Shown here: positions 4,076 through 63,276 of the stretch, in pieces | Position numbering within the stretch: position 1 is the stretch's first letter | Layout of the letters: each line of letters starts with the position of its first letter | Source of the DNA: a virus | Length of the DNA stretch: 64,000 nt | IMG/VR virus record: IMGVR_UViG_3300021077_000115 | Location: 110,064 to 174,063 of that record | Direction: 5' to 3' (one strand) | The notes under the pieces: generated by a model | What the model was told of the DNA's origin: nothing | Seen by the model: the letters and a program-made list of their open reading frames with translations, nothing else | Databases searched by the model: none | Program-made: the position numbers and the translations under genes

Positions 4076-4327
4076 TCACTCATACATCGGCATCTCTTCA
4101 TCATCCCACTCGGGGATCTTGTCGTACACCAGCAAGTCAATGATCTGTTGCTCTTCCCAATGATCTGGGTGAATGTCCCATGCGCAGACCATATAGCCCT
4201 GGGCTAGCTTCAACAGCTGGTGTATATCGAAACGCTCAGCGAATGACTCACTGCCTGTACTGAATAAATTGTCCGCACGACGAAGTAATTCAATTCCCGT
4301 TACCTTCTGTGCATCTTTTAGTTTCAT
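4076..4327 (-). CDS. hypothetical protein
   Basis: 83-aa ORF. Confidence 0.4.
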   Translation of the reverse strand: MKLKDAQKVTGIELLRRADNLFSTGSESFAERFDIHQLLKLAQGYMVCAWDIHPDHWEEQQIIDLLVYDKIPEWDDEEMPMYE

Positions 4328-4908
4328 ACAATCTCCACAACCACCTCATCGTGGCCCAAGTCATAACCGGCCGCCTTGGCTAGAGAATTCTGCAAGCCCT
4401 TGCGCATCACGAATTTTCTTGACCGTAGCTCTTCCAAGCATCGCTCGTCACTAATTTCGCTGTAGTAGTCGGCCTCCAATAGCTTGTAGAATTCCTCGCA
4501 CAACCCAGAGCGCAAACGCTCAATATCATCACCGACACTGGCATTGTTGCCAGTATACGAAACCCTCCGTGTCATTGAGTGAACGTAGTGACGATCGTAG
4601 ACCTCTATCGAGCACTCCCACTTGTTCCTGGAGCGATATGTAATTCCAAGATGCCTGCAAACCTTCTTGAGGTCCACCTTGGCATCGAAGCAAGCACCAT
4701 CGCCTTGACTTGAGAACCCAGAGTACAAAACCTCAGGTTCCATGAACCCAATCTTCTCTAACTTCTCCTTGAACTCATCAACTAAAGGATCCGGTCGCCA
4801 TATCTCGGCAAGCGCTTCGCACTCTTCGCGAAGCAACTTCTCCTGGTAGGCTGTGGATAAATTATCGTAATCCAGAACCTCACAATCAATTATTACTCTC
4901 ATGTTCAC
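4324..4908 (-). CDS. hypothetical protein with YSGFSSQGDGACFDAKVD motif
   Basis: 194-aa ORF; the conserved-looking motif is not assignable to a family by eye. Confidence 0.5.
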   Translation of the reverse strand: MNMRVIIDCEVLDYDNLSTAYQEKLLREECEALAEIWRPDPLVDEFKEKLEKIGFMEPEVLYSGFSSQGDGACFDAKVDLKKVCRHLGITYRSRNKWECSIEVYDRHYVHSMTRRVSYTGNNASVGDDIERLRSGLCEEFYKLLEADYYSEISDERCLEELRSRKFVMRKGLQNSLAKAAGYDLGHDEVVVEIV

Positions 4909-5202
4909 TCATTTCAAATTGAAAAGAATTGCCGCACACACGCGAACCTTTTCTTCATGCTTCGGCTCAAAAGAAACAATAATTGCTTTTAACATAGCAA
5001 TGCCACGCGATTGATATTCTTTATCAATACCCCCACCAACAGGAATCTTTCCACCATTGAAAAATAAACCATTGACAATATCTGAATATTCTTTTTCATC
5101 AGCATAGCTCGGAAACTCAAAGCTCAACGCCTCTTTGAAAAAATCCTTTGGATATTCAAATAGACCACCAGATATTTTGGGAATGTTTAATTTGTTTGAC
5201 AT
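4909..5202 (-). CDS. hypothetical protein (weak SUKH/SMI1-KNR4-like pattern)
   Basis: Likely starts at MSNKLNIPK inside ORF 4909..5250; the NGG motif region resembles immunity-protein folds only weakly. Confidence 0.4.
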   Translation of the reverse strand: MSNKLNIPKISGGLFEYPKDFFKEALSFEFPSYADEKEYSDIVNGLFFNGGKIPVGGGIDKEYQSRGIAMLKAIIVSFEPKHEEKVRVCAAILFNLK

Positions 5203-5447
5203 AATCCACGCCTCATGTTCGCTTCCTTCTTCCAATGCGCAGCGGATCAAAGTACCACATCACTGCGCAAACAATGAATGCGAATACTAAATTCCTAATG
5301 TCCTCACCCGCCATCATCAACGGACTAGATCGTGTTGACAACTCCAAGGGGCATTCGGCTGATAACGTTATCCCTTGTTGCTATCGCTGCAATTCAGCAC
5401 CTTGAAATATCTATTGATGTTTTTATATTGAGGGGAGGTCGAGGGGC

Positions 5448-5726
5448 TCAGGCTGCGTATACTCGACGACCATTGATCTTGATTACCCCGGGCTCGTTGC
5501 CGCAGCGGATCGACTCGTACAGCCCCTCGACGTATTGGGTAGTGTCACACCCGAGATCGGAGCTGTCCACGGTATCAGCAGTGTCGTAGTCCATCAGCAA
5601 GCAGCTATTGAGCTCAGCGCGGCAAGTGTCGATCATCTCCACGATGCCATCGTCGCCCGCTTGGATCGCGTCGGCCTTGAGTGCGGAGATTTTGGATTCC
5701 ATTGAGTTTACCATTGAGTTTACCAT
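5448..5726 (-). CDS. hypothetical protein
   Basis: 92-aa ORF; its N-terminus lies in a 12-nt tandem duplication (MVNSMVNSM). Confidence 0.4.
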   Translation of the reverse strand: MVNSMVNSMESKISALKADAIQAGDDGIVEMIDTCRAELNSCLLMDYDTADTVDSSDLGCDTTQYVEGLYESIRCGNEPGVIKINGRRVYAA

Positions 5727-5760: not shown

Positions 5761-6006
5761 TTAGCCGGCCCCGACTTGACTCGGGTTCCGGCATTGGGTC
5801 CAGGACGACTTACCTGGCTTGAGTTTGGCAAACAAGTCCTGATCAACGTAGTCATCATCTTCAGGATGTTCATGGCCAGATACAATGTTGGTTTGATACC
5901 CTACCGCATGACACTTGCTGCATATCCACTCGAAGTTATGCGGCCTCGGTGGCTGCTGATAGTTTGGCTTTCCACTGAATACCTTGTGATGTAAACATGG
6001 TTCCAT
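5761..6006 (-). CDS. small Cys/His-rich protein
   Basis: 81 aa with C...C...H...H spacing. Confidence 0.35.
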   Translation of the reverse strand: MEPCLHHKVFSGKPNYQQPPRPHNFEWICSKCHAVGYQTNIVSGHEHPEDDDYVDQDLFAKLKPGKSSWTQCRNPSQVGAG

Positions 6007-6094
6007 AAAATTCTTCTTTCTGATTTTTGATTTATCGGCCGGCCTAATGCTTGTGAAAAATTAAGGGCAGCATGAAGCTGCCCTTCCCTCGGCA

Positions 6095-6760
6095 ACAGGA
6101 AAAGAAACCGACACAAAAATTTCTTCACCCGAGGTACGGGATCTGTACCTTACCCTGAGCCGTCGCGAGACGTGAGTCAACTAACGGGCTATGCCAGAGT
6201 CTTTGAAAAGAAAATGGCAGCACAACCAGGCGAGTTTTACCTCGGGTCTTCCTTTCGGATGCCATTCCTGATTGTGCCGCCAAACCCGCTTGAGTTATCA
6301 TTAGGCCGCCGAGCGCTATTTGGCGGGCTAGAGCAACAAAGCTCAACTCAAACTTGCTAAGGGTAGATTACGTTTCCGCCTTAGCCTCGCTCGGTTGGCC
6401 TCACCAACGCTGATCCTTTCGGGGTGACGTTGTGCTGTTCAACCGGAAGCTCCGCCTGGTCTGACGAAGCATTCTTAGCGACGGGCCAAGTTTTGAGAAA
6501 TACCCTTTGCACAAAGCTCAGAGCATCCCCGACCCACTTGGCTTAGCCGGACTTGGCAGTACATCCCAGTTAAGGGTAACCTCCTACGCACCAACGCGCA
6601 ACCGCTGTGGGAAACTAAGCACACGTATATTGCGGTACGTGGCTTATGGTGGATCTTTCACGATTCGAACGTGCCTCTCTGTTACGAGCGCTCACCAAGA
6701 ACCCTGACAGGTGCACGTGTCACCCTTGCAGATTCTCATCCTTTCGGATTGAGCTTAAGA
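6095..6760 (-). ncRNA. Unassigned large structured non-coding region (~650 nt) with tRNA-like 3' element and terminator
   Basis: No ORF of 60 codons or more is consistent with the neighbouring genes. Many short GC-rich helices (e.g. GTGGCGAAAGCCAC-type). On the minus strand a canonical T-loop lies near plus 6645-6675 (CACG-TTCGAAT-CGTG) followed by AAGATCC-A-CCA. A GGGCAGC-loop-GCTGCCC hairpin plus T-run at 6065-6095 sits at the minus-strand 3' side. Confidence 0.35.
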
Positions 6761-6770
6761 CCCTAAAATA

Positions 6771-7052
6771 TTATAATTGAGTATCTGGAAAACAATTATC
6801 ATTGATACAGTCAATGACAAGTTTTTGAATGCCTTTGAGTGCGTCATCACGATTCTTGTCTAGAAAGCTCAAGCTTGGGAGCTCAGCGCAGATTCCTACA
6901 AATTCCTGATCCTCTTCTGACCATGATACTTGATAGCTATAAACTGGTTCCGCTCCCAGAGCCTTCGCTACTAGTTGTGGGTCAACCAAACGCTCTGATT
7001 TAGACTCAGTAAAAACCTCTCGCTCGCTTGGCCCGGTTGTGACAATTTTCAT
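6771..7052 (-). CDS. HicB-like (UPF0150) antitoxin-family protein
   Basis: YSYQVSWSEEDQEFVGICAELPSLSFLDKNRDDALKGIQKLV matches the HicB N-terminal pattern (acidic residues, then hydrophobic-ELPG/S-x-S/T...EA/AL). No HicA partner was seen. Confidence 0.45.
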   Translation of the reverse strand: MKIVTTGPSEREVFTESKSERLVDPQLVAKALGAEPVYSYQVSWSEEDQEFVGICAELPSLSFLDKNRDDALKGIQKLVIDCINDNCFPDTQL

Positions 7053-7179
7053 TATAGCCTCTGTATAAAATTACAGTGTAGGTGGACCCGTTACAACTCG
7101 AACGTAACTCTCATTCGGTAGCTAACCGAAAGCGCTCTTCCCTGAGCCGAGGCCCGAAACATTCATGTAGGTAAGTGTG

Positions 7180-7527
7180 GGTGGAAGTGTTCGGAATCGA
7201 ACCGAAGTCTTGCGATCCTCTCTTATTTCCATCATTCACGTGCGTAGCCACTGTATCCCCAATGGCTGAGTTCGTCAATTCGGTGGACGACCTATTCACC
7301 TGTTTGTCTCGTAAGCAACTTCGGTAACCCAAGTTACTTACCAGCCTTTGTGGTTGGCAATCCTGACCGCTACCAAGACAATCTTGCGGAGGACCGGCCG
7401 TGCTACTTATTAGGCAGCTGCGGCGTATGCATTATCATTCGCATTTAGAACGCCTAATGTTTGGGTGTATTAGGACCACCTACACGCAGGAAATATTTCA
7501 GATCCCAATCGAAAACCTTTCACTCCC
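7180..7527 (-). ncRNA. ssrA: tmRNA (ssrA)
   Basis: Minus-strand 5' end GGGAGTGAAAGGTTTTCGATTGGGATCTG resembles E. coli GGGGCUGAUUCUGGAUUCGACGGGAU. Tag frame at revcomp 7442..7407 reads GCG AAT GAT AAT GCA TAC GCC GCA GCT GCC TAA TAA = ANDNAYAAAA** (cf. ANDENYALAA). 3' end has T-arm TTCGG-TTCGATT-CCGAA, then CACTTCC-A-CC, which pairs with the 5' GGGAGTG. Confidence 0.8.
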
Positions 7528-7699
7528 ATATTTAGAAACATAAGATAGCATAAGAAATTAAGATTCGCAAGGAGCCCCAGGTAAGTACCGGAATGGCTCG
7601 GAAGCCATTCGTGGCTTTCGCCACAGCCGCGTCAGTTCAGCCGTCCGCTGGGGAACATCCTTGCTTTGGGGGCGACCACCAGGAACCTTTCGGTTCCAG

Positions 7700-10802: not shown

Positions 10803-11138
10803 CTAGCCGGAACGCCCTTGGCGTTCAAAGTATGCCCGCAGAACTTCCATGCGGTAACGGAAAATGCACTGACGTATCATATCAGCGATATGATAAGTAA
10901 GCTTTTGCTTTATGCACAACGTTAACGCCAGCCTACGCTGGACGGCCTCAACCTCTTCGATAGTCCAAGTAAGCGAAGAGTCTTCTCCAAGCAGCTTCTC
11001 AATCTCTGGCCCAGGATTAATCTGCTTGATGCGAACCATCTCTAAGTAAGTTATTGCACGGGCCAATTGCACATCGGAACACCACACTGCCAACTCTCTT
11101 GCCGTACTATGCTCGGTTGCTGGGAGGTCGATTGACAT
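10803..11138 (-). CDS. hypothetical protein
   Basis: 111-aa ORF. Confidence 0.45.
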   Translation of the reverse strand: MSIDLPATEHSTARELAVWCSDVQLARAITYLEMVRIKQINPGPEIEKLLGEDSSLTWTIEEVEAVQRRLALTLCIKQKLTYHIADMIRQCIFRYRMEVLRAYFERQGRSG

Positions 11139-12176: not shown

Positions 12177-12845
12177 TCAACAACCCACGAACCAATGTTT
12201 ATGCAAATGATCAGCGATATCAATGAGCAATTTGCTGCGACAATCATAAACGATTTTTTTAATCTTACACTTATCACAAGAATCGCAGGGCACGATTCCG
12301 ATGGGTGTGTTACAACAAAACATACAGTCCATTGGAATTTCAAAAGACATTAGCATTTTTATAAGCTGAACATTATCAATGTTCTTCAAAGGAAAGGCAT
12401 ACCGAATAGGCCCTCTCCGCGCACCTTCTAAGTTGTCTGCAAATGAATTGAAACTATTTAGAAGCTTCAAAAAATCCTTCTCTTGATAAGGTTCTCCCTT
12501 TTTATATCCCCATGAAACAATATCTTCAGGCTGAAAATATATTTGGAATAAGCTTGGCCACAGATGATGTTGCCTAAGCATGAGATCCCCTACTGCATTG
12601 CCACTCACCGATATCTCTTGCGCCTGAATGAAATGCCCAATCGACTTCGCAAAACGCAAATACTTGTGCCTTGCAATGGATTGAGCCCGCATCTGTCCAG
12701 CATTGCAACGATGATGTTCCTTTACCGACAATGTTATTACAGGGTTTTCCTTGGTGGAAAGCATACCCGCCATGTAAAGTATCGCCGTTGAATCCAAACC
12801 GCCTGACCAGATCACCACGTTGCGAGCCATTAGCTCACCCCGCAA
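12177..12845 (-). CDS. queC: QueC-like PP-loop ATPase (7-cyano-7-deazaguanine synthase family)
   Basis: N-terminal NVVIWSGGLDSTAILYMA PP-loop (SGGxDS) and C-terminal Cys cluster CCNTPIGIVPCDSCDKC, ~220 aa as for QueC; the middle region is divergent. Confidence 0.5.
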   Translation of the reverse strand: MRGELMARNVVIWSGGLDSTAILYMAGMLSTKENPVITLSVKEHHRCNAGQMRAQSIARHKYLRFAKSIGHFIQAQEISVSGNAVGDLMLRQHHLWPSLFQIYFQPEDIVSWGYKKGEPYQEKDFLKLLNSFNSFADNLEGARRGPIRYAFPLKNIDNVQLIKMLMSFEIPMDCMFCCNTPIGIVPCDSCDKCKIKKIVYDCRSKLLIDIADHLHKHWFVGC

Positions 12846-39457: not shown

Positions 39458-40045
39458 TTGCGCATGGGCGATATAGTAACTGGAAACGGTTTGTGTTTAT
39501 TTTGGACATCATGGCCATCTAATTGGCAATCTTCACCGATGACAATTGATAGCGTTCGCTATAGTTGCGTTGAACAATACATGATGTCTATGAAGGCTAG
39601 GTTATTTGGGGATCTGTTTAATCTGAAAAGGATTATGTCAACCCAAATTCCCAAATTGCAAAAACAATACGGAAGAGAAGTAAAGGGATTCAATCCGGAG
39701 ATATGGGGTGATGTTGCATATGAAGTTGTTCTTCGTGCAACAGTAGAGAAATACAGGCAGAATCCTAAGCTTCTAATTCTCCTTCAAAAAGCTGGTGACT
39801 TGGAATTTGTTGAGGCAAGTCCTGAAGATGTAATTTGGGGAATTGGATTGGGGACTGGTGATCCTGACGCACTCGATAAGTCCAAGTGGCGCGGACAGAA
39901 TCTGCTTGGGAAAGCAATCACCGAAGCCAAGAAGCTGATCGAAGATCTGGAGGCTACCGGCGTAACGCCTGGTGGCGGCGTCAACAAGATCTGGCGGCCA
40001 GGAACAATTGGAAAGTTCCTGATTGGGCTTGAAGAGGCTGGGTGA
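39458..40045 (+). CDS. NADAR-domain protein (YbiA/DUF1768 family)
   Basis: FWTSWPSNWQSSPMTIDSVRYSCVEQYMMSMKARLFGD...EASPEDVIWGIGLG pattern of the NADAR fold. Confidence 0.6.
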   Translation: MRMGDIVTGNGLCLFWTSWPSNWQSSPMTIDSVRYSCVEQYMMSMKARLFGDLFNLKRIMSTQIPKLQKQYGREVKGFNPEIWGDVAYEVVLRATVEKYRQNPKLLILLQKAGDLEFVEASPEDVIWGIGLGTGDPDALDKSKWRGQNLLGKAITEAKKLIEDLEATGVTPGGGVNKIWRPGTIGKFLIGLEEAG

Positions 40046-49032: not shown

Positions 49033-49269
49033 TTGACTCCGCTCAACCCGTGGGTAATCCTTTTATCAGATCGGATGTACATGAAGATGAAAGTGGTTCG
49101 AGTTTCGGCCACTGAGTTCGAATTGGAAGACGGTAGGGTATTTCCCCACGTCACCCCACTCGAACCGGTTCCGACTCCCGAAGAGTTTCAAGTACATTAC
49201 GACCTGTGGTCAGATCGGTTGAAGTCCAAGGATGTCCAGTGGCCTCGTTTCGCTCAAAAAAGCGGCTGA
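49033..49269 (+). CDS. hypothetical protein (overlaps tnpA start)
   Basis: 78 aa; weak. Confidence 0.3.
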   Translation: MTPLNPWVILLSDRMYMKMKVVRVSATEFELEDGRVFPHVTPLEPVPTPEEFQVHYDLWSDRLKSKDVQWPRFAQKSG

Positions 49270-49855
49270 AATCCTTGGTTGTGGTACCTCGACGCTTCGG
49301 ACTTGGGACAAGAACAAGAGCCTCGTAGCCGTTAGAACCCCAGGTGGTCAGCGCCGGTACCGCACTGAAGACCTAGACCGCTTCCAAGGGATCATCAAAA
49401 AGACCTCCAAGATGTCGGAAAATGTCGCTGTCTACGCTCGGGTTTCGAGCCATGAGCAGAAGGCTAAGGGCGACCTTGACCGTCAAAAGGGAAGGCTTCT
49501 AGAGCATTGCGTCAAGCAGAGCTACTCGGTGACGCATGTCATGGAGGAAGTCGGATCTGGGATGACGGACACTCGGCCGAAGATGCTCCGCCTTCTTGAG
49601 TTGGCCACGAGGGGCGAGATTGGGCGGGTGGTTATCGAGCACAAGGATCGACTCGCGAGGTTCAACTTCAACATATTCCAAAAGTTCTTCGAGAGTCATG
49701 GTGTACAGGTTGAGTGGCTGGAAAACGTGCTCCCAAAGTCCTACGAGGCCGAACTAGTCGAGGATATGGTCAGCCTCATGTCCAGCTTCTCAGCCAAAGT
49801 TTACGGAAAACGGAGCGCTGAGAACCGCCGAAAGAAGAAGCAAGAGGCCGCCTGA
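49232..49855 (+). CDS. tnpA: IS607-type serine recombinase/transposase TnpA (MerR-like HTH + resolvase catalytic domain)
   Basis: LKKAAEILGCGTSTLRTWDKNKSLVAVRTPGGQRRYRTEDL HTH, then VAVYARVSSHEQK catalytic-Ser motif. Confidence 0.8.
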   Translation: MSSGLVSLKKAAEILGCGTSTLRTWDKNKSLVAVRTPGGQRRYRTEDLDRFQGIIKKTSKMSENVAVYARVSSHEQKAKGDLDRQKGRLLEHCVKQSYSVTHVMEEVGSGMTDTRPKMLRLLELATRGEIGRVVIEHKDRLARFNFNIFQKFFESHGVQVEWLENVLPKSYEAELVEDMVSLMSSFSAKVYGKRSAENRRKKKQEAA

Positions 49856-50190
49856 TGGAACCTAATGAGTCAAAGATTGAGGTTTTCGCAAGGTGGTACG
49901 GGTATCCGTCTGTCTACTGTCAAGCGAGCACACCAGATTACCGATATGTCGTAGCTATCCCTAGACTCCCCTACAACATACTGGAAGAATTCAAGAAGGA
50001 ACTGGACTCTCACTCCTCCGATGGTGATCCATACTTCGTGTTTGAATACTCAGATCAGTTCCTCAGTATAGCCGGTACCTTTGATATTCCGCGTAACCAC
50101 TGTGAGAGTTGGGTGCAATGCTACTTGACTGCCCGCCCTGAGGGTGGGCTCAGATTCAAAAACGAGCCATGGTCAGAAAGGAACCCATGA
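49855..50190 (+). CDS. hypothetical protein between tnpA and tnpB
   Basis: 111-aa ORF. Confidence 0.4.
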   Translation: MEPNESKIEVFARWYGYPSVYCQASTPDYRYVVAIPRLPYNILEEFKKELDSHSSDGDPYFVFEYSDQFLSIAGTFDIPRNHCESWVQCYLTARPEGGLRFKNEPWSERNP

Positions 50191-50603
50191 CAAGTTACTC
50201 CAACTTCTTTGAGATGCTGGACGCTATTGAAGCGAAGATGCAAGACCCACGTTGTAAGGAGGCTGGACTCACCCCTTACACAGGGGAGCCTCTACTAACG
50301 AGTATGGATCTTGGGTGGATCGTTGCGCTTCCCCTAAGCGAACGGGACGAAACATTCCAGTTCAGTGTGAGTCTACGTCAGATAAAGATTGACCGGCAAG
50401 ATCCTAGATGGGCCGATGCTTATGCCAGGCTCCAATCATTTACGACCCACTTCATTACATGTCCAAAGCATGGGGTGGTTAAAGGCATCCCGATACACAA
50501 GCTTCAAGGCAAGAAAGAGGGATCTGAGACGCTGGTATGCATACCTTGTGTGGCTGAGCGCATGGTGAATCCTGTTCGAACTTCAGCCAATCTCTCGATA
50601 TGA
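50169..50603 (+). CDS. hypothetical protein between tnpA and tnpB (C..H...C..C)
   Basis: 144-aa ORF. Confidence 0.4.
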   Translation: MVRKEPMTSYSNFFEMLDAIEAKMQDPRCKEAGLTPYTGEPLLTSMDLGWIVALPLSERDETFQFSVSLRQIKIDRQDPRWADAYARLQSFTTHFITCPKHGVVKGIPIHKLQGKKEGSETLVCIPCVAERMVNPVRTSANLSI

Positions 50604-52027
50604 AGAAATGTCGGTTCTTCATGCTGCATCCTGAGTGCAACCCTGGGAAGATTCAATCCCTGGAAGCTCTTCACGTCGAGTACATAGCTTATGTCCGGAT
50701 CTGCGTTCAGACGATGCTCAAAGCCCATAGGCTGACTTTGCCCCGCTCGGAGAAGCAGGACTTCTTCCCCAGGGCTGAGAAGCTTACGTCTCAGATTGAG
50801 AAAAACGCCCGCGACCATGCCATCCAGATTGTGAGCACTTGGGCTAAGTCGGTTTATGCCAGGAAGATCAAGACTTTCATCAGGTTATCTTTCAAAGAGG
50901 GGAACTTTGACGAGGACTTCTGTAAGCAGCTTTACACGGTGGGTAAGTACTTGATTCATGAGCCGAAGGAAACCGTGTCCCAGGAAGCAATTGATCTGTA
51001 TTGGTCTTGGCTCTCTGACCCAGAAGTAGTGGGGAACCCGCCTTCCATATCCAGTCGGATTCCAATGAGGATGTCGGAGAACACCTGCTCATTGGAAGAC
51101 CCAGAAGAGGCTACCCACGCGGATCTTTGGCTCAAGATCTCAACTTTGATTTCTCGGAAGCTTGCTTGGCTACCACTGGTTGGGAACCCATACGTCAAGA
51201 AGTCATCTGACGTAAGTAAGGGAATCCACGCTAGAAAAGACCGAAAGGGCCGTTGGCGGTTCGAAGCCGTTGATACCAAAGAGTGGTTGGTCTGCGAGGC
51301 CGAACCTGACTTACCCAGGATTGGAGTCGATGTAGGACTAAACGTGGTAGCGGCTACTTCGAGCGGACACGTGTTTGGGGCCTACCTAAAACCCAAGTTC
51401 AACAGGCTCTACGACAAGGTCAGGGAAGTCAGGGCGAACCGCCAAAGGCAGGATCTCAAGGAGAACAGTCCTAGGCTAGACCGACTAGAATCACGCCTCT
51501 CTGGCTTGACCAAGAGCTTCACGGGACGGGTATCCAATGAACTGATCCGAACGTACTCTGAGTCCGTCTTCGTCTTAGAAGACCTAGATCTTCGTGGTTG
51601 TCGTGGGCAAAAACGCTTCTGTTACAGGGAATTAGCTCATGCCCTTGAATCAAAGGCTCCAACTGAAAAGGTGAATCCGGCCTACAGTTCTCAGACATGC
51701 CCTTCGTGTGGGCATGTCTCTAGATACAATCGGGCTGGAATAGATTTCATCTGTCGCCAGTGCGGCAGGATTTCACATGCCGACGTGGTAGGAGGGATCA
51801 ATTTGCTCGGACGTTCCGAGAGCAAACAGATTGGCCTCGATGATCATCCGTCGGAAGTGAAGGGAGTGCTTGTGAGGCTATACTGGTCTAGGAGGAATCC
51901 GGATCAGGACTGTCCACAAGACTTCTTGAATAAATACGCGCCATTACCGTATGGCCGAAGGCTTACTACCAGGGGACTCTCTCGAAAGAGAAGCACTGGC
52001 ATAGCTTTTAATCAGGTAGCTGCTTGA
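50600..52027 (+). CDS. tnpB: TnpB (OrfB_IS605/RuvC-like RNA-guided nuclease family)
   Basis: RuvC-I IGVDVGLN, RuvC-II VFVLEDLDL, zinc finger CPSCGH...CRQCG, RuvC-III HADVVGGINLL. Confidence 0.8.
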   Translation: MKKCRFFMLHPECNPGKIQSLEALHVEYIAYVRICVQTMLKAHRLTLPRSEKQDFFPRAEKLTSQIEKNARDHAIQIVSTWAKSVYARKIKTFIRLSFKEGNFDEDFCKQLYTVGKYLIHEPKETVSQEAIDLYWSWLSDPEVVGNPPSISSRIPMRMSENTCSLEDPEEATHADLWLKISTLISRKLAWLPLVGNPYVKKSSDVSKGIHARKDRKGRWRFEAVDTKEWLVCEAEPDLPRIGVDVGLNVVAATSSGHVFGAYLKPKFNRLYDKVREVRANRQRQDLKENSPRLDRLESRLSGLTKSFTGRVSNELIRTYSESVFVLEDLDLRGCRGQKRFCYRELAHALESKAPTEKVNPAYSSQTCPSCGHVSRYNRAGIDFICRQCGRISHADVVGGINLLGRSESKQIGLDDHPSEVKGVLVRLYWSRRNPDQDCPQDFLNKYAPLPYGRRLTTRGLSRKRSTGIAFNQVAA

Positions 52028-55287: not shown

Positions 55288-56166
55288 ATGCCAACAAGAA
55301 TCATTGCATTAGGTACAGGCTCTGCCTTCACAATGAACAACTACCAAACTAACTTTGTCATCAAAAGAAATGGCAAGTATCTTTTGGTAGATTGTGGTGG
55401 CGATGTCAGATTTAGCCTTAGAGATCAGGGCCTGTCTGCCAAGGATATAGATGCTGTCTATATTTCACATGCTCACGCAGATCATGTGGGCGGCATGGAG
55501 TTCTTGGCATTCACACGCTACTTTACAAAGAGATCAATGGAAAATGCTAGGGCCCTCGCGCGAACTGTCGATCCTGAGCATTCCCCAGAGCCACTTCAAT
55601 TACCAGTGCTATTCTGTGAGCATGGGATGATTCGAACACTTTGGGATCACTCATTACGAGGAGGTCTCGAAGGACTTGAGGGAATCGACGCCAACATCGA
55701 CACCTATTTCAGGGTACATCCAGTGCCAAAAAACGGATCGTTCGAGTGGGAGGGCTTGAAGTTCGATATCGTTCAAAGCCTTCATGTCTCTGCTAAATAT
55801 AGTATTGTTGATTCATTCGGGCTGATGTTTACTGATGATATTGGGTATCGAATATTCATCACTACAGATGTTCAGTTCGCCCCAGAGACATCTATGAAAG
55901 CCTATTACAAAGAGGCTGATGTCATAATTCATGACTGCGAAACAGGATTCAAAAGCGGAGTTCACGCCCATTACGATCAGCTAAGGACATTGGATAATAG
56001 CATTAAGAATAAGATGCTTTTGGTTCACTACCAAGACAATGTCTTGGAAGATTGGAATGCGTGGGTGGACAAGGCCAACCAGGACGGCTTCGACGGATTC
56101 GTCAAGCCTGGGCCGATTTGGTCTGATGAACCACCTGACGTAATCGCAGCAACAACGAATGTTTGA
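55288..56166 (+). CDS. metallo-beta-lactamase-fold hydrolase (RNase Z / cyclic-nucleotide phosphodiesterase-like)
   Basis: ISHAHADHVGG (HxHxDH), downstream ITTDVQ and IIHDCE, then HAHYD metal-ligand-like residues. Confidence 0.6.
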   Translation: MPTRIIALGTGSAFTMNNYQTNFVIKRNGKYLLVDCGGDVRFSLRDQGLSAKDIDAVYISHAHADHVGGMEFLAFTRYFTKRSMENARALARTVDPEHSPEPLQLPVLFCEHGMIRTLWDHSLRGGLEGLEGIDANIDTYFRVHPVPKNGSFEWEGLKFDIVQSLHVSAKYSIVDSFGLMFTDDIGYRIFITTDVQFAPETSMKAYYKEADVIIHDCETGFKSGVHAHYDQLRTLDNSIKNKMLLVHYQDNVLEDWNAWVDKANQDGFDGFVKPGPIWSDEPPDVIAATTNV

Positions 56167-56242: not shown

Positions 56243-57292
56243 ATGAAGAAAATGAAGATTGGTGTTTTCATTGCTCGGCTACAACCGTTTCATCTTGCCC
56301 ACGTTGATATTGTAAAGTTGGCAATGAAAGATAACGATCATGTGGTTATAATTCTTGGCTCTGCATGTCAGGCTAAGACAATCAAGAATCCATGGACTAC
56401 TGACGAGCGCGAATTGATGATTCGCAAATGTCTTACGTCAGAAGGAAATACCCACATAAGTGTTGTTGCTGCTAAAGACTATTTCTATAATGACAACATG
56501 TGGCTATCTTCATTGCAGTCTGCATTGGGGTCTGTAAAGGTCAATGGCGTTGAAGTTGACCTTGATGATTGTGACGTAACGCTTTATGGTCATGATAAGG
56601 ATAGGTCAACATTCTATCTCCACTTATTTCCTAAGTGGAAGCTCAATGATGTTGGAAACTTACGCACAGAGTTTCCTAGGCTAGATGCAACGTTGGTCAG
56701 ATCATTTTTCTTCAAAGGTAATACGGCTGAGTTAAGAAAGTTTATACCACAACCTGTATATGATATGTTGCTATCAGAAATGGGAACTAGTACATACCAA
56801 AATCTTGTTGCAGAATTCGACCACATTACTGAGTATAGAGCGCTATGGGCCTCATCTCCGTATCCAGTTCAATTTGTGACAACCGATGCTCTTGTGATAA
56901 AGTCCGGACACGTACTAATGACGGTGCGTGGCGGATATCCAGGCAAAGGTCTAATCGCGCTACCTGGCGGATACTTGAATCCAGATGAGCGTATAGTTGA
57001 CGGATGCCTTCGTGAGTTAAAAGAAGAAACGCAAATCGCTGTTAGCAAAGATGAGTTGAGGAAGGCAATTGTTGATCAGAGGGTCTTCGATCATCCAGAA
57101 CGTTCTTTGCGCGGACGAACTATTACACATGGTTATTGCATAAATCTCGGTGCCGGAGACCTTCCAAAAGTAAAGCGCGGTGACGATGCCGCTGAAGCGT
57201 TTTGGATGCCACTTCGAGATGTTTATCGTAGAGAAGAAGATTTCTTCGAGGATCACTTCCACATCATATTCTTTTTTACTTCGAAATTTTAG
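56243..57292 (+). CDS. nadM: bifunctional NMN adenylyltransferase (NadM-type) / Nudix ADP-ribose pyrophosphatase
   Basis: N-terminal MKIGVFIARLQPFHLAHVDIV (archaeal-type NMNAT (H/T)xGH); C-terminal GGYLNPDERIVDGCLRELKEETQI Nudix box. Confidence 0.8.
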   Translation: MKKMKIGVFIARLQPFHLAHVDIVKLAMKDNDHVVIILGSACQAKTIKNPWTTDERELMIRKCLTSEGNTHISVVAAKDYFYNDNMWLSSLQSALGSVKVNGVEVDLDDCDVTLYGHDKDRSTFYLHLFPKWKLNDVGNLRTEFPRLDATLVRSFFFKGNTAELRKFIPQPVYDMLLSEMGTSTYQNLVAEFDHITEYRALWASSPYPVQFVTTDALVIKSGHVLMTVRGGYPGKGLIALPGGYLNPDERIVDGCLRELKEETQIAVSKDELRKAIVDQRVFDHPERSLRGRTITHGYCINLGAGDLPKVKRGDDAAEAFWMPLRDVYRREEDFFEDHFHIIFFFTSKF

Positions 57293-60317: not shown

Positions 60318-60770
60318 ATGCCTATCGAACCAAATCCTTTTGATGACGAACGCCTTGCAAAGATTAGAGCTGAGCAAGGAGACCCTCTAATTCAATACTA
60401 CATCGTAAGAACTGACTTGAACATGAGCGCAGGAAAGATGGGAGCCCAAATAGCTCACGGCGCTCAGATGTTCGTTATACGATCTGGAACTCTGGCAGAA
60501 CGTCACAAAAACGATATGACTCCACTGAAGCCAGAGTATGAAGAGATCTTGGGGGTTGTGGCAGAGTGGATGAATGGAAGTTTCCGCAAGGTTGTGCTCG
60601 GCGGCAAGAAGAAGGACTTCGAGAAGATCATTGCTGAGCTGCGGGTCTTCCTCGTGCGCGATGCCGGCCTGACCGAAGTGGAGCCCAACTCCGAGACAGT
60701 GTTGGTGACATGGCCAATTAGGCGATCTGAATGTCCTAAAATATTGAAAAGACTTCAAACTCTAAAGTAA
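60318..60770 (+). CDS. pth2: peptidyl-tRNA hydrolase, PTH2 family
   Basis: QYYIVRTDLNMSAGKMGAQIAHGA and the C-terminal ETVLVTWP...ILKRLQTL match PTH2 ([21 protein letters not shown]...TVLGIGP...HLKL). Confidence 0.65.
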   Translation: MPIEPNPFDDERLAKIRAEQGDPLIQYYIVRTDLNMSAGKMGAQIAHGAQMFVIRSGTLAERHKNDMTPLKPEYEEILGVVAEWMNGSFRKVVLGGKKKDFEKIIAELRVFLVRDAGLTEVEPNSETVLVTWPIRRSECPKILKRLQTLK

Positions 60771-61977: not shown

Positions 61978-63276
61978 GTGAAGAAAAACTACATTCTTGA
62001 TACTAACGTGCTGATTCATGACCCACAATCGATATTCAAATTTGAGGACAACAACCTATACATTCCAATTTACGTATTAGAAGAACTAGATAAATTGAAG
62101 AGCGAGCTTTCCCTTCGTGGACGAAATTCACGCGAAGTTTGCCGATTGCTCGATGACCTGCGCTGCCAAGGCTCATTACCAGAAGGGGTTCCGGTAGGAG
62201 ATGGTAAGCTAATCATTTACGTCCCCCAAGAGCGGAAGGTCATCAAGGTTGCTCTCGATTCAAAAAGCATGGACAACGCAATACTTCAGTGCGCTGTTGA
62301 AATCAAGGAATCTTCCGAACTTATATCCATCATGGTAACCATGGATGTTAACCTTCGCATCCGCGCTGAATGCATAGGAGTTCAAACAGCTTCATACGAA
62401 TTCCAATCAGTAGACACTTCGCATATGATTACTGGTCACACCAATATGAATGTGGATCTTGAAGACATTGATAGGCTATTCAGTGAAGGATCTATTTTAC
62501 CAAAAGAATCTGATGAGGAGTTGTTTGATAACATCTGCATCATGCTAAAAGATCCAAGTGGCAAAACTGCTATTGGAAGATACAATAAGAAAAAGAACAT
62601 CGTAACTCCAATTCGTCCACATGGCGATGTGATGGGTATCAAGCCAAGGAACGTAGAACAGAAATTCGCATTGGATTTGCTACTCGATGATAATGTCAAA
62701 ATCGTAACCCTATCTGGTACCGCTGGTGGTGGTAAAACACTACTTGCTTTGTGTGTTGGTTTACAAAAGACGCTTGACGGCAAATATTCAAGACTACTTG
62801 TCAGTAGACCAATCATGCCTCTAGGTAAAGATATTGGATATCTAAAGGGAACTCTTGAAGAGAAGATGAATCCTTGGATGCAACCAATTTATGACAATCT
62901 AGAATTGCTCATGATGCAGGGCGGCGGAAAACGCAAAGGTCTCAAGTATGATGATTTGTTTGAACAAGACATTATTCGCGTAGAGCCTCTGACGTATATC
63001 CGAGGAAGAAGCTTACCTGGCCAATTCATTATTATTGATGAGGCACAGAACCTAACTAGTCATGAAATTAAAACAATCATTACAAGATGCGGTGAAGGCT
63101 CGAAGATAGTATTAACTGGTGATCCTGAACAGATTGATAGCCCGTACATGGATAAGGGATCTTGTGGATTAAGTGTTGCGGTCGAGAAACTTCATGATAA
63201 TCCTATTGTAGGTCATCTCACCTTATCTAAGGGCGAGCGTTCTGAGCTGGCAAATCTAGCAGCTAATCTGATGTAG
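61978..63276 (+). CDS. phoH: PhoH2 (N-terminal PIN domain + PhoH-like ATPase)
   Basis: PIN ILDTNVLIHD; Walker A LSGTAGGGKTLLA; Walker B/DEAQ IIIDEAQN. Confidence 0.8.
   Translation: MKKNYILDTNVLIHDPQSIFKFEDNNLYIPIYVLEELDKLKSELSLRGRNSREVCRLLDDLRCQGSLPEGVPVGDGKLIIYVPQERKVIKVALDSKSMDNAILQCAVEIKESSELISIMVTMDVNLRIRAECIGVQTASYEFQSVDTSHMITGHTNMNVDLEDIDRLFSEGSILPKESDEELFDNICIMLKDPSGKTAIGRYNKKKNIVTPIRPHGDVMGIKPRNVEQKFALDLLLDDNVKIVTLSGTAGGGKTLLALCVGLQKTLDGKYSRLLVSRPIMPLGKDIGYLKGTLEEKMNPWMQPIYDNLELLMMQGGGKRKGLKYDDLFEQDIIRVEPLTYIRGRSLPGQFIIIDEAQNLTSHEIKTIITRCGEGSKIVLTGDPEQIDSPYMDKGSCGLSVAVEKLHDNPIVGHLTLSKGERSELANLAANLM

Follow-up and report, generated by a model that had tools for sequence, protein, structure and literature searches.

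A tRNA-like domain without an anticodon arm opens a non-coding RNA gene beside tmRNA in huge phages

We analysed a 64,000-nt stretch of viral DNA (IMG/VR record IMGVR_UViG_3300021077_000115, positions 110,064 to 174,063; hereafter the window, whose numbering is used below), in which about 650 nt (6095–6760) had initially been annotated as a structured non-coding region. The flagged region does hold a non-coding RNA gene, which extends on the minus strand from 6763 to about 6205, possibly continuing to 6063 by read-through, and its 5' end folds into a 117-nt tRNA-like domain (TLD) that carries alanine identity elements and has a short stub in place of an anticodon arm. The fold is conserved and covaries among three phage lineages, in each of which the RNA lies downstream of a transfer-messenger RNA (tmRNA) gene. 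We regard it as an evenly balanced question whether the TLD functions as an alanine-type tRNA mimic that is followed by a variable 3' trailer, and our confidence in any single target is much lower.

A tRNA-like fold at the 5' end of a non-coding RNA gene

The absence of coding capacity held up on closer inspection: between a 93-aa open reading frame (ORF) at 7052–6771 and an 81-aa ORF at 6006–5761, the longest ORF on either strand is 73 aa. Gene callers placed nothing here in two near-identical copies, the public contigs L007 (JGI 3300046484) and L008 (Logan SRR13557796), which are 99.5–100% identical to the window across the locus, and comparison of the lineages described below gave no conserved short reading frame in the downstream part in any frame. 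An 11-nt insertion or deletion between strains is a further sign of a non-coding region. We assign the gene to the minus strand because of its G.U pairs, T loop and CCA. Folding of the whole region gave −274 kcal/mol on this strand (z = −5.4) and −237 kcal/mol on the plus strand (z = −3.0; 20 shuffles each).

The initial annotation had noticed a T arm (GCACG-UUCGAAU-CGUGA) followed by AAGAUCC-A-CCA, both of which are present at 6674–6647 on the minus strand. This tRNA-like module is genuine, although it stands at the 5' end of the minus-strand element and not, as had been proposed, at its 3' end. The acceptor partner that had been reported missing is GGGUCUU at 6763–6757, which begins 10 nt past the stop codon of the upstream 93-aa ORF, and the complete tRNA-like fold is the minimum-free-energy structure of 6763–6637. 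The parts of the TLD are listed below, as delineated from the sequence, the minimum-free-energy fold and compensatory changes relative to two related lineages, L050 and L053.

6647–6763, minus: tRNA-like domain (TLD), 117 nt
6763–6757, minus: acceptor 5' strand, GGGUCUU
6754–6751 and 6693–6690, minus: D stem, GCUC/GAGC
6749–6738 and 6737–6697, minus: GAAA-capped hairpin and long hairpin of the enlarged 56-nt D loop, followed by GG
6688–6677, minus: stub CUC-GUAACA-GAG (3 bp, capped), in the position of the anticodon arm
6674–6658, minus: T arm, loop UUCGAAU
6657–6651, minus: acceptor 3' strand, AAGAUCC
6650–6647, minus: A73 and the encoded CCA

The 7-bp acceptor stem, which holds G1-C72, G2-C71 and a G3.U70 wobble pair, is accompanied by two other hallmarks of a tRNA, a D stem and a T arm with a canonical T loop (the T stem of the window contains one G.A, at pair 49-65). 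The anticodon arm, a 5-bp stem with a 7-nt anticodon loop, is absent, and the D-loop hairpins contain no conserved 7-nt loop. The stub that takes its place reads CUC-GUAACA-GAG in the window and CCC-GUAA/GCAA-GGG in L050 and L053, and because of it the TLD would be unable to read codons. One single-sequence fold paired GGGUCUU with AAGACUC (6203–6197); this pairing was ruled out by the relatives, in which the strand covaries with the acceptor 3' strand.

The TLD resembles bacterial tRNA-Ala in its acceptor stem (7 bp, with the three pairs named above), A73 and CCA, as well as in its 5-bp T stem, UUCGAAU loop, G53-C61 pair, D-loop GG and location in a phage tRNA island. Its D stem GCUC/GAGC, followed by GC (GAGCGC), and its AGG linker also resemble the sequence of E. 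coli tRNA-Ala. It departs from bacterial tRNA-Ala in the 3-bp stub, capped by GUAA, GCAA or GUAACA, in a D loop carrying a hairpin insert of 17–56 nt, and in some 440 nt of RNA past the CCA. The bacterial alanine identity set comprises A73, G2-C71, G3.U70 and G4-C69, together with G20 and no anticodon element (PMC9976931); A73, G2-C71 and G3.U70 are all present in the TLD, and pair 4-69 is U-A or A-U.

A sigma-70 promoter scan of the minus strand listed nothing upstream of 6763. The sequence contains a TATAAT, 6 nt before G1, which is a candidate only.

Covariation among lineages and the RNA beyond the CCA

Homologues of a neighbouring 194-aa protein led to the two syntenic lineages, L050 (ENA ERZ27254256) and L053 (ENA ERZ27245388, to which the JGI locus L133 is identical). 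Both have the order tRNA-Thr, tmRNA, TLD RNA, and in each of the three lineages tmRNA precedes the TLD RNA, which is some 240 nt long in L050 and some 330 nt in L053. In L053, tRNA-Thr and tmRNA (5994–6348) are followed by the RNA (6368 to about 6700) and then by a homologue of the 81-aa ORF of the window. The TLD begins there only 19 nt past the tmRNA, which suggests that the two are co-transcribed.

The L050 locus is more complex, with tRNA-Thr and tmRNA followed by a shortened 5' copy A of the RNA (4766–4880), an HNH ORF (4879–5295) and a full copy B (5278 to about 5515) without the 5' strand of the 3' hairpin. Positions 4766–5560 form a mosaic in which a 34-nt direct repeat (about 4848–4881 and 5429–5463) flanks an insert, and copy A has a D-loop insert of the window type. 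The mosaic looks like the outcome of a rearrangement or gene conversion that a homing endonuclease has driven; L053 has an HNH-like ORF just upstream of tRNA-Thr.

For the alignment, the variable D-loop inserts were taken out and the L007 form of the second post-CCA hairpin was used. The window and L050 have the acceptor stem GGGUCUU/AAGAUCC, and L053 has GGGAACC/GGUUUCC, so that pairs 4–7 all differ on both sides, while G1-C72, G2-C71, G3.U70, A73 and CCA are unchanged across the three lineages. The T stems are GCACG/CGUGA, CCAUG/CAUGG and GACAG/CUGUC, and the stub stem is CUC/GAG or CCC/GGG. RNAalifold recovered all six helices unaided from this alignment. Pairing is found in 94.5% of cells, compared with 37–50% when partners are slid by 1–3 columns, and both sides have changed in 16 of 43 pairs, a count matched by none of 500 shuffles; these figures rest on three sequences and are indicative, not a probability.

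Beyond the TLD, the RNA comprises the following parts.

6616–6646, minus: hairpin HP1, UAAGC-CACGUA...UACGUG-U-GCUUA, directly after the CCA
6589–6611, minus: hairpin HP2, near-invariant core CACAGCRGUUGCRYGUUGGUG
6283–6588, minus: central lineage-specific segment with several predicted hairpin domains, GAAA-capped ones among them
6205–6282, minus: conserved 3' domain, base-pair probabilities near 1.0
6086–6204, minus: extra tail between two terminators, only in this lineage, without counterpart in the relatives
6063–6085, minus: second intrinsic-terminator-like hairpin of 9 bp (6 G-C), then AAUUUUU

In HP1 (helix 5 of the alignment) the outer UAAGC/GCUUA pairs are kept, the inner pairs covary, with four showing double changes, and GCAA is part of the loop in all three lineages. 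HP2 (helix 6) has three pairs with double changes, its outer stem being UCCCAC/GUGGGA in L007 and GCUCAC/GUGAGC in L050 and L053, and an inner A-U pair becomes G-C among the lineages. The window and L008 lack 11 nt (GGAGAAGTCGG, kept in L007) and with them some of the 3' strand of the outer HP2 stem; this deletion is the sole difference between the strains over 2.4 kb.

The 3' domain is built on a 16-bp stem (6282–6267/6230–6215) that encloses the hairpins UCC-GAAA-GGA and CGAG-GUAAAA-CUCG and is followed by the U tract UUUUCUUUUC at 6214–6205; hairpin and U tract are probably the primary terminator. A 51-nt block of this domain (6257–6207) is 100% identical to L050 5464–5514, and L053 has the same layout of a stem, AUUCGAAAGGA...CGAG, a closing stem and then UUUUCUUUUC. 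The terminator hairpin that had originally been noticed is also present, at 6085–6063 on the minus strand, and is the second of the two.

Comparison thus upheld the 117-nt TLD, the two post-CCA hairpins and the 3' hairpin as conserved and covarying, whereas the central 300 nt or so is absent in the relatives: about 45 nt stand in its place in L050 copy B, and about 130 nt of unrelated sequence in L053. The description of the region as highly structured holds for its conserved ends, which cover about 190 nt (5') and about 80 nt (3'), but not for the centre, which on its own (6585–6286) has a z-score of only −1.98 on the minus strand, where 9 of 200 shuffles folded as well, and of 0.0 on the plus strand. 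A weak resemblance to RNase P, noted at first as unconvincing, is not supported, as the word AAGUCCGG (6554–6547) lies in the non-conserved centre, GGUAAAACUCGCC (6241–6229) falls within the 3' hairpin, and no RNase P model matched at E ≤ 10. Internal tandem duplication was rejected as an origin of the central region: the best local alignment scored 24, where shuffles averaged 22.2 and 90 of 300 did as well, and an nhmmer extension in this test was owed to the 51-nt identical block.

Database searches and genomic setting

The RNA is new in the sense that no curated family, tRNA finder or phage record matches it; in kind, it is a tRNA/tmRNA-like mimic. Rfam 15 matched only the known tmRNA and tRNA-Thr, both across the whole window at gathering thresholds and at E ≤ 10 on 5950–7200, 6630–6770, 7055–7178 and L053 5900–6740. 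At E ≤ 10 the TLD was unmatched by the models for tRNA (RF00005), tmRNA (RF00023) and permuted tmRNA (RF04321), and ARAGORN made no tRNA or tmRNA call on it, which sets it apart from an ordinary tRNA-Ala. The families named by the initial annotation as worth checking likewise gave no match in the region at E ≤ 10: GOLLD (RF01998) and ROOL (RF03087), which were also negative at the gathering threshold, the RNase P and group I/II intron models on 5950–7200, and tmRNA in its standard and permuted forms.

Searches for further members were similarly sparse. BLASTN against 50,697 phage records found no match for the window RNA (E up to 5) or for the tmRNA-plus-RNA region of L053. In IMG/VR, an exact 26-mer, the 190-aa neighbouring protein, the HP2 motif and the tmRNA anchor motif retrieved nothing; the 93-aa neighbour retrieved only unrelated HicB-like loci without the RNA, the 194-aa neighbour only distant loci without it, and the stub motif only L209 plus coding matches. 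Among the matches listed in a metagenome scan with the TLD pattern, most were chance or coding and the only family member was L133. A scan of GTDB genomes with the HP2 motif gave 38 matches, all chance or coding. No homologous RNA was present at the huge-phage locus L047–L049, which carries a relative (P0005) of the HicB-like protein, a homologue search with the 81-aa downstream ORF found nothing, and extra exact-protein look-ups gave no new strains. A covariance model of the family (R1), run across 0.97 Mb of loci, recovered only the three known lineages, the rest scoring at most 27 bits and several overlapping ordinary tRNA genes. At the sensitivity of these scans, the family appears to consist of three lineages of uncultured huge phages and to be absent from IMG/VR, INPHARED and GTDB species genomes.

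The window is a piece of a huge phage genome: the 93-aa protein has an identical copy on a 391,957-bp contig. Genes up to about 22.6 kb lie on the minus strand, and those beyond it on the plus strand. As the initial annotation stated, a tmRNA (7527–7180) and a tRNA (tRNA-Thr, 7772–7699) are neighbours of the flagged RNA, and they lie on the same strand. The minus-strand order is tRNA-Thr, tmRNA, a 76-nt tRNA-like element, the 93-aa ORF, the flagged region and the 81-aa ORF.

7772–7699, minus: tRNA-Thr (ARAGORN, Rfam)
7180–7527, minus: one-piece phage tmRNA, tag ANDNAYAAAA, 3' end ACCC (ARAGORN, Rfam)
7052–6771, minus: 93-aa ORF
6006–5761, minus: 81-aa ORF downstream of the flagged region

The 76-nt element (7080–7155, minus), which starts 24 nt past the tmRNA, is tRNA-Ala-like, with G3.U70, A73, the 3' end ACCU, the T loop UUCGAGU and the anticodon loop UUAGCUA (AGC); what makes it aberrant is a C7xC66 mismatch together with a compressed D arm. 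The element and the TLD are paralogues, with 75% identity to 6648–6679 (32 nt) and compensated T-stem changes; neither ARAGORN nor Rfam called the element, and model R1 gave it 14 bits.

The three phage tmRNA genes (window 7180–7527, L050 about 4250–4603, L053 5994–6348) encode no CCA and end in ACCC, ACUA and ACUA, respectively; the TLD RNA encodes CCA in all lineages. Their tags are ANDNAYAAAA, ANDNAFAAAA and ANDNGQLAFAA. The spacer between tRNA-Thr and tmRNA (window 7528–7698, minus; L050 4116–4249; L053 5805–5993) holds a long hairpin with a conserved GGUACUUACC-YRGG core and, immediately upstream of the tmRNA 5' end, a conserved AUCUUAUGUU motif; hairpin and motif may be terminator, promoter or processing signals.

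The 93-aa ORF between tmRNA and TLD RNA has a C-terminal half resembling HicB antitoxins (relatives carry PF05534), and L050 and L053 have no equivalent at the same position. Since HicA of E. coli has been reported to cleave tmRNA (PMC11594946), this ORF may be an antitoxin gene set beside the phage tmRNA.

Tentative parallels to the TLD were seen on other contigs. An IMG/VR scan for TTCGAAY-N9-TCCACCATAAGC returned 30 loci, mostly permuted tmRNA genes, in which a CCACCA-UAAGC-hairpin junction links the two pieces and is removed. Such two-piece genes occur on many IMG/VR phage contigs (L058–L061, L064–L069, L071, L073, L075–L078, L080–L085) and share a conserved CCACCA-UAAGC...GCUUUUGAU-GGGG junction. 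Four further loci on metagenomic or viral contigs, L110 (about 10836–10909, minus), L113, L151 and L209 (10247–10343), hold tRNA-like genes with a stub or a non-canonical loop for an anticodon arm; the first three are of alanine type (G3.U70, A73, CCA), and L209 has GAGCGCCCGGAAGGGAG and an enlarged D loop in common with the TLD, but G3-C70. This architecture may extend beyond the three lineages. In the tRNA arrays of L057, L062 (4047–4184), L063, L070, L072 and L079 (IMG/VR 3300045988, 94–121 kb) there is a tRNA-Gln(UUG)-like gene, uncalled by ARAGORN (GCGCCAG...CUGGCGC-ACCA, anticodon stem GCGGC/GCCGU), whose anticodon loop is broken by a mini alanine-type unit with G3.U70 (GGGGAAG...GCAAG-UUCGAAU-CUUGC-CUUCUCC-ACCA). 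This mini-tRNA could be a tRNA-shaped intron or part of a split-tRNA arrangement.

Elsewhere in the window, an IS607-like pair (49232–52027, plus) consists of a serine recombinase with a MerR-type helix-turn-helix domain (49232–49855) and a TnpB/Cas12f-like protein (50600–52027), whose closest phage relative (46.6% identity) belongs to LR745208.1, an uncultured phage of 485 kb. The window also encodes a PTH2-type peptidyl-tRNA hydrolase (60318–60770) and further auxiliary proteins, namely NADAR, an Apyc1-like metallo-beta-lactamase (anti-Pycsar), a NadR-like nucleotidyltransferase fused to Nudix, a PIN-PhoH protein and a QueC-like protein; the coordinates of the set, PTH2 included, are 60318–60770, 39458–40045, 55288–56166, 56243–57292, 61978–63276 and 12177–12845.

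Possible function and competing explanations

By analogy with established tRNA biology, the TLD product is probably processed, chargeable with alanine and non-decoding. Charging with alanine and processing by RNase P are also known for tmRNA (PMC3985003), which uses the same alanine identity. The transcript would be made jointly with, or just after, the phage tmRNA; RNase P would cleave at G1 (6763), and an endonuclease and 3' trimming, aided by the conserved post-CCA hairpins, would lay bare the CCA at 6647. Host alanyl-tRNA synthetase (AlaRS), with the acceptor arm as its sole readout, would then charge the 117-nt product with alanine, and this anticodon-less RNA would act on the alanine/tmRNA branch of translation and not on codons. 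Candidate roles are that of a decoy or competitor for AlaRS, for EF-Tu/SmpB, or for nucleases attacking tRNA-Ala or tmRNA, and that of a tag-less, tmRNA-like alanine donor. The remaining 440 nt or so would form a 3' trailer of two conserved hairpins, a spacer grown to about 300 nt here, and a conserved terminator domain. The main argument that selection acts on aminoacylation identity, beyond mere processing, is invariance: G3.U70, A73 and CCA are retained in every lineage while the rest of the acceptor stem turns over.

Several observations weigh against this proposal. Pair 4-69 is unlike the G4-C69 of bacterial tRNA-Ala, and AlaRS, EF-Tu or SmpB might be impeded by the stub and by the 56-nt insert in the D loop. 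Because the CCA lies inside the transcript, an acceptor role would depend on 3' cleavage. The L050 locus is rearranged, with a shortened copy, an HNH gene and a copy missing the 5' strand of the 3' hairpin, and thus not every copy need be functional. The covariation comes from a three-sequence comparison. Lastly, the post-CCA UAAGC and the HP2 core are conserved as strongly as the TLD, which hints that the downstream part has a role of its own.

This last point leads to an alternative that we consider unlikely, namely a tRNA-linked regulatory or scaffold RNA whose function lies in the post-CCA part (HP1, HP2, the spacer and the three-way 3' hairpin), with the TLD as a processing handle through which RNase P and 3' tRNA-processing enzymes would give the downstream RNA a defined 5' end. 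Bacterial tRNA 3' external transcribed spacers and the stable RNAs of the T4 tRNA cluster are examples of tRNA-like handles or tRNA-linked small RNAs, and the TLD resembles them as a tRNA-shaped unit co-transcribed with another RNA, from which it would presumably be split by RNase P and 3' processing enzymes. Past the CCA lie the family's most invariant bases (UAAGC, the GCAA loop, the HP2 core, the AUYCGAAAGGA...CGAG interior of the 3' hairpin and an identical U tract), the 51 identical nucleotides of the 3' domain contrast with about 77% identity or unalignable sequence elsewhere between the window and L050, and HP1 and HP2 covary. A handle, however, has no need of the complete aminoacylation identity set that the TLD retains under selection: G3.U70, A73 and the encoded CCA are invariant even as the four remaining acceptor pairs vary. 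Moreover, the downstream RNA differs in length and sequence in its middle, and the 5' strand of the 3' hairpin is missing in L050 copy B.

The initial annotation had favoured a giant RNA of about 650 nt of the GOLLD/ROOL type; its structured, non-coding minus-strand RNA gene in a phage tRNA/tmRNA island stands, but the giant RNA is not supported, for lack of an Rfam match and because the centre is missing in relatives. A broader version, in which a tRNA-like unit is covalently joined to a variable region and a conserved 3' domain, some 560–700 nt in all, as a single folded and possibly multimeric particle akin to GOLLD or ROOL, seems to us rather improbable. The window RNA is phage-encoded, sits beside tRNA genes and has many hairpins over several hundred nucleotides, as those RNAs do; the z-score of −5.4 for the whole minus strand, four GAAA-capped hairpins and several multi-branch domains with high predicted pair probabilities also speak for it. 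Phages encode GOLLD and ROOL close to tRNA islands, GOLLD having a conserved 3' part, a variable 5' part and a linker that sometimes contains tRNAs (10.1101/2024.12.08.627333). Unlike them, the window RNA matches no covariance model or Rfam family at E ≤ 10, and its large central part, absent from both related lineages, is by itself little more structured than shuffled sequence (z = −1.98; 9 of 200 as good).

Another alternative is a new form of tmRNA gene, without a coding part or in an unusual arrangement, in which the TLD with SmpB would serve as a second, tag-less rescue RNA at stalled ribosomes; we hold it to be very improbable. The TLD shares with the tRNA-like domain of tmRNA an alanine identity set without an anticodon, a tmRNA gene nearby (in all three lineages, upstream of the TLD RNA) and an expected need for tRNA-processing enzymes. 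Its CCACCA-UAAGC-hairpin junction recurs in many of the permuted tmRNA genes of phages, 9 standard and 72 permuted tmRNAs that lack a coding sequence have been documented (PMC11915505), and the window encodes the PTH2 peptidyl-tRNA hydrolase. Set against this, the acceptor stem of the TLD is closed by a contiguous upstream strand and accompanied by a true D stem, the RNA has no P2 helix, pseudoknots or conserved tag-like reading frame, and neither RF00023 nor RF04321 matches it.

Least probable in our estimate is a functionless remnant, a decaying tRNA-Ala pseudogene and recombination scar at a homing-endonuclease hotspot. The mosaic L050 locus, with its HNH ORF between a shortened and a full copy and its flanking 34-nt direct repeats, the HNH-like ORF upstream of tRNA-Thr in L053, the aberrant tRNA-Ala-like paralogue and inserted HicB-like ORF of the window, and the 11-nt deletion in HP2 would all suit such a history. 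Decay would not readily account for 16 pairs changed on both sides with pairing kept, for invariant identity nucleotides, or for a canonical T loop and an encoded CCA kept in all lineages next to tmRNA genes that encode none.

The usual explanations for phage tRNAs are codon supply and escape from anticodon nucleases. An anticodon-less RNA with a selected alanine acceptor identity fits neither explanation and points to a role for the acceptor arm alone. What appeared to be a 650-nt giant RNA is a conserved 117-nt module with conserved hairpins and a fast-evolving spacer, and standard tRNA, tmRNA and Rfam scans overlook the module entirely. A more speculative extension, which we consider possible but doubtful, is that huge phages carry a class of alanine-charged, anticodon-less tRNA mimics expressed with tmRNA, acting as tag-less tmRNA-like units or as decoys for the alanine/tmRNA machinery (AlaRS, EF-Tu/SmpB, or host nucleases cutting tRNA-Ala or tmRNA). 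Because other phage contigs hold similar alanine-type anticodon-less mini-tRNAs (L110, L113, L151 and the L057/L062 group), such a class may be broad, and, if real, it would be a new kind of viral tool for manipulating translation or ribosome rescue.

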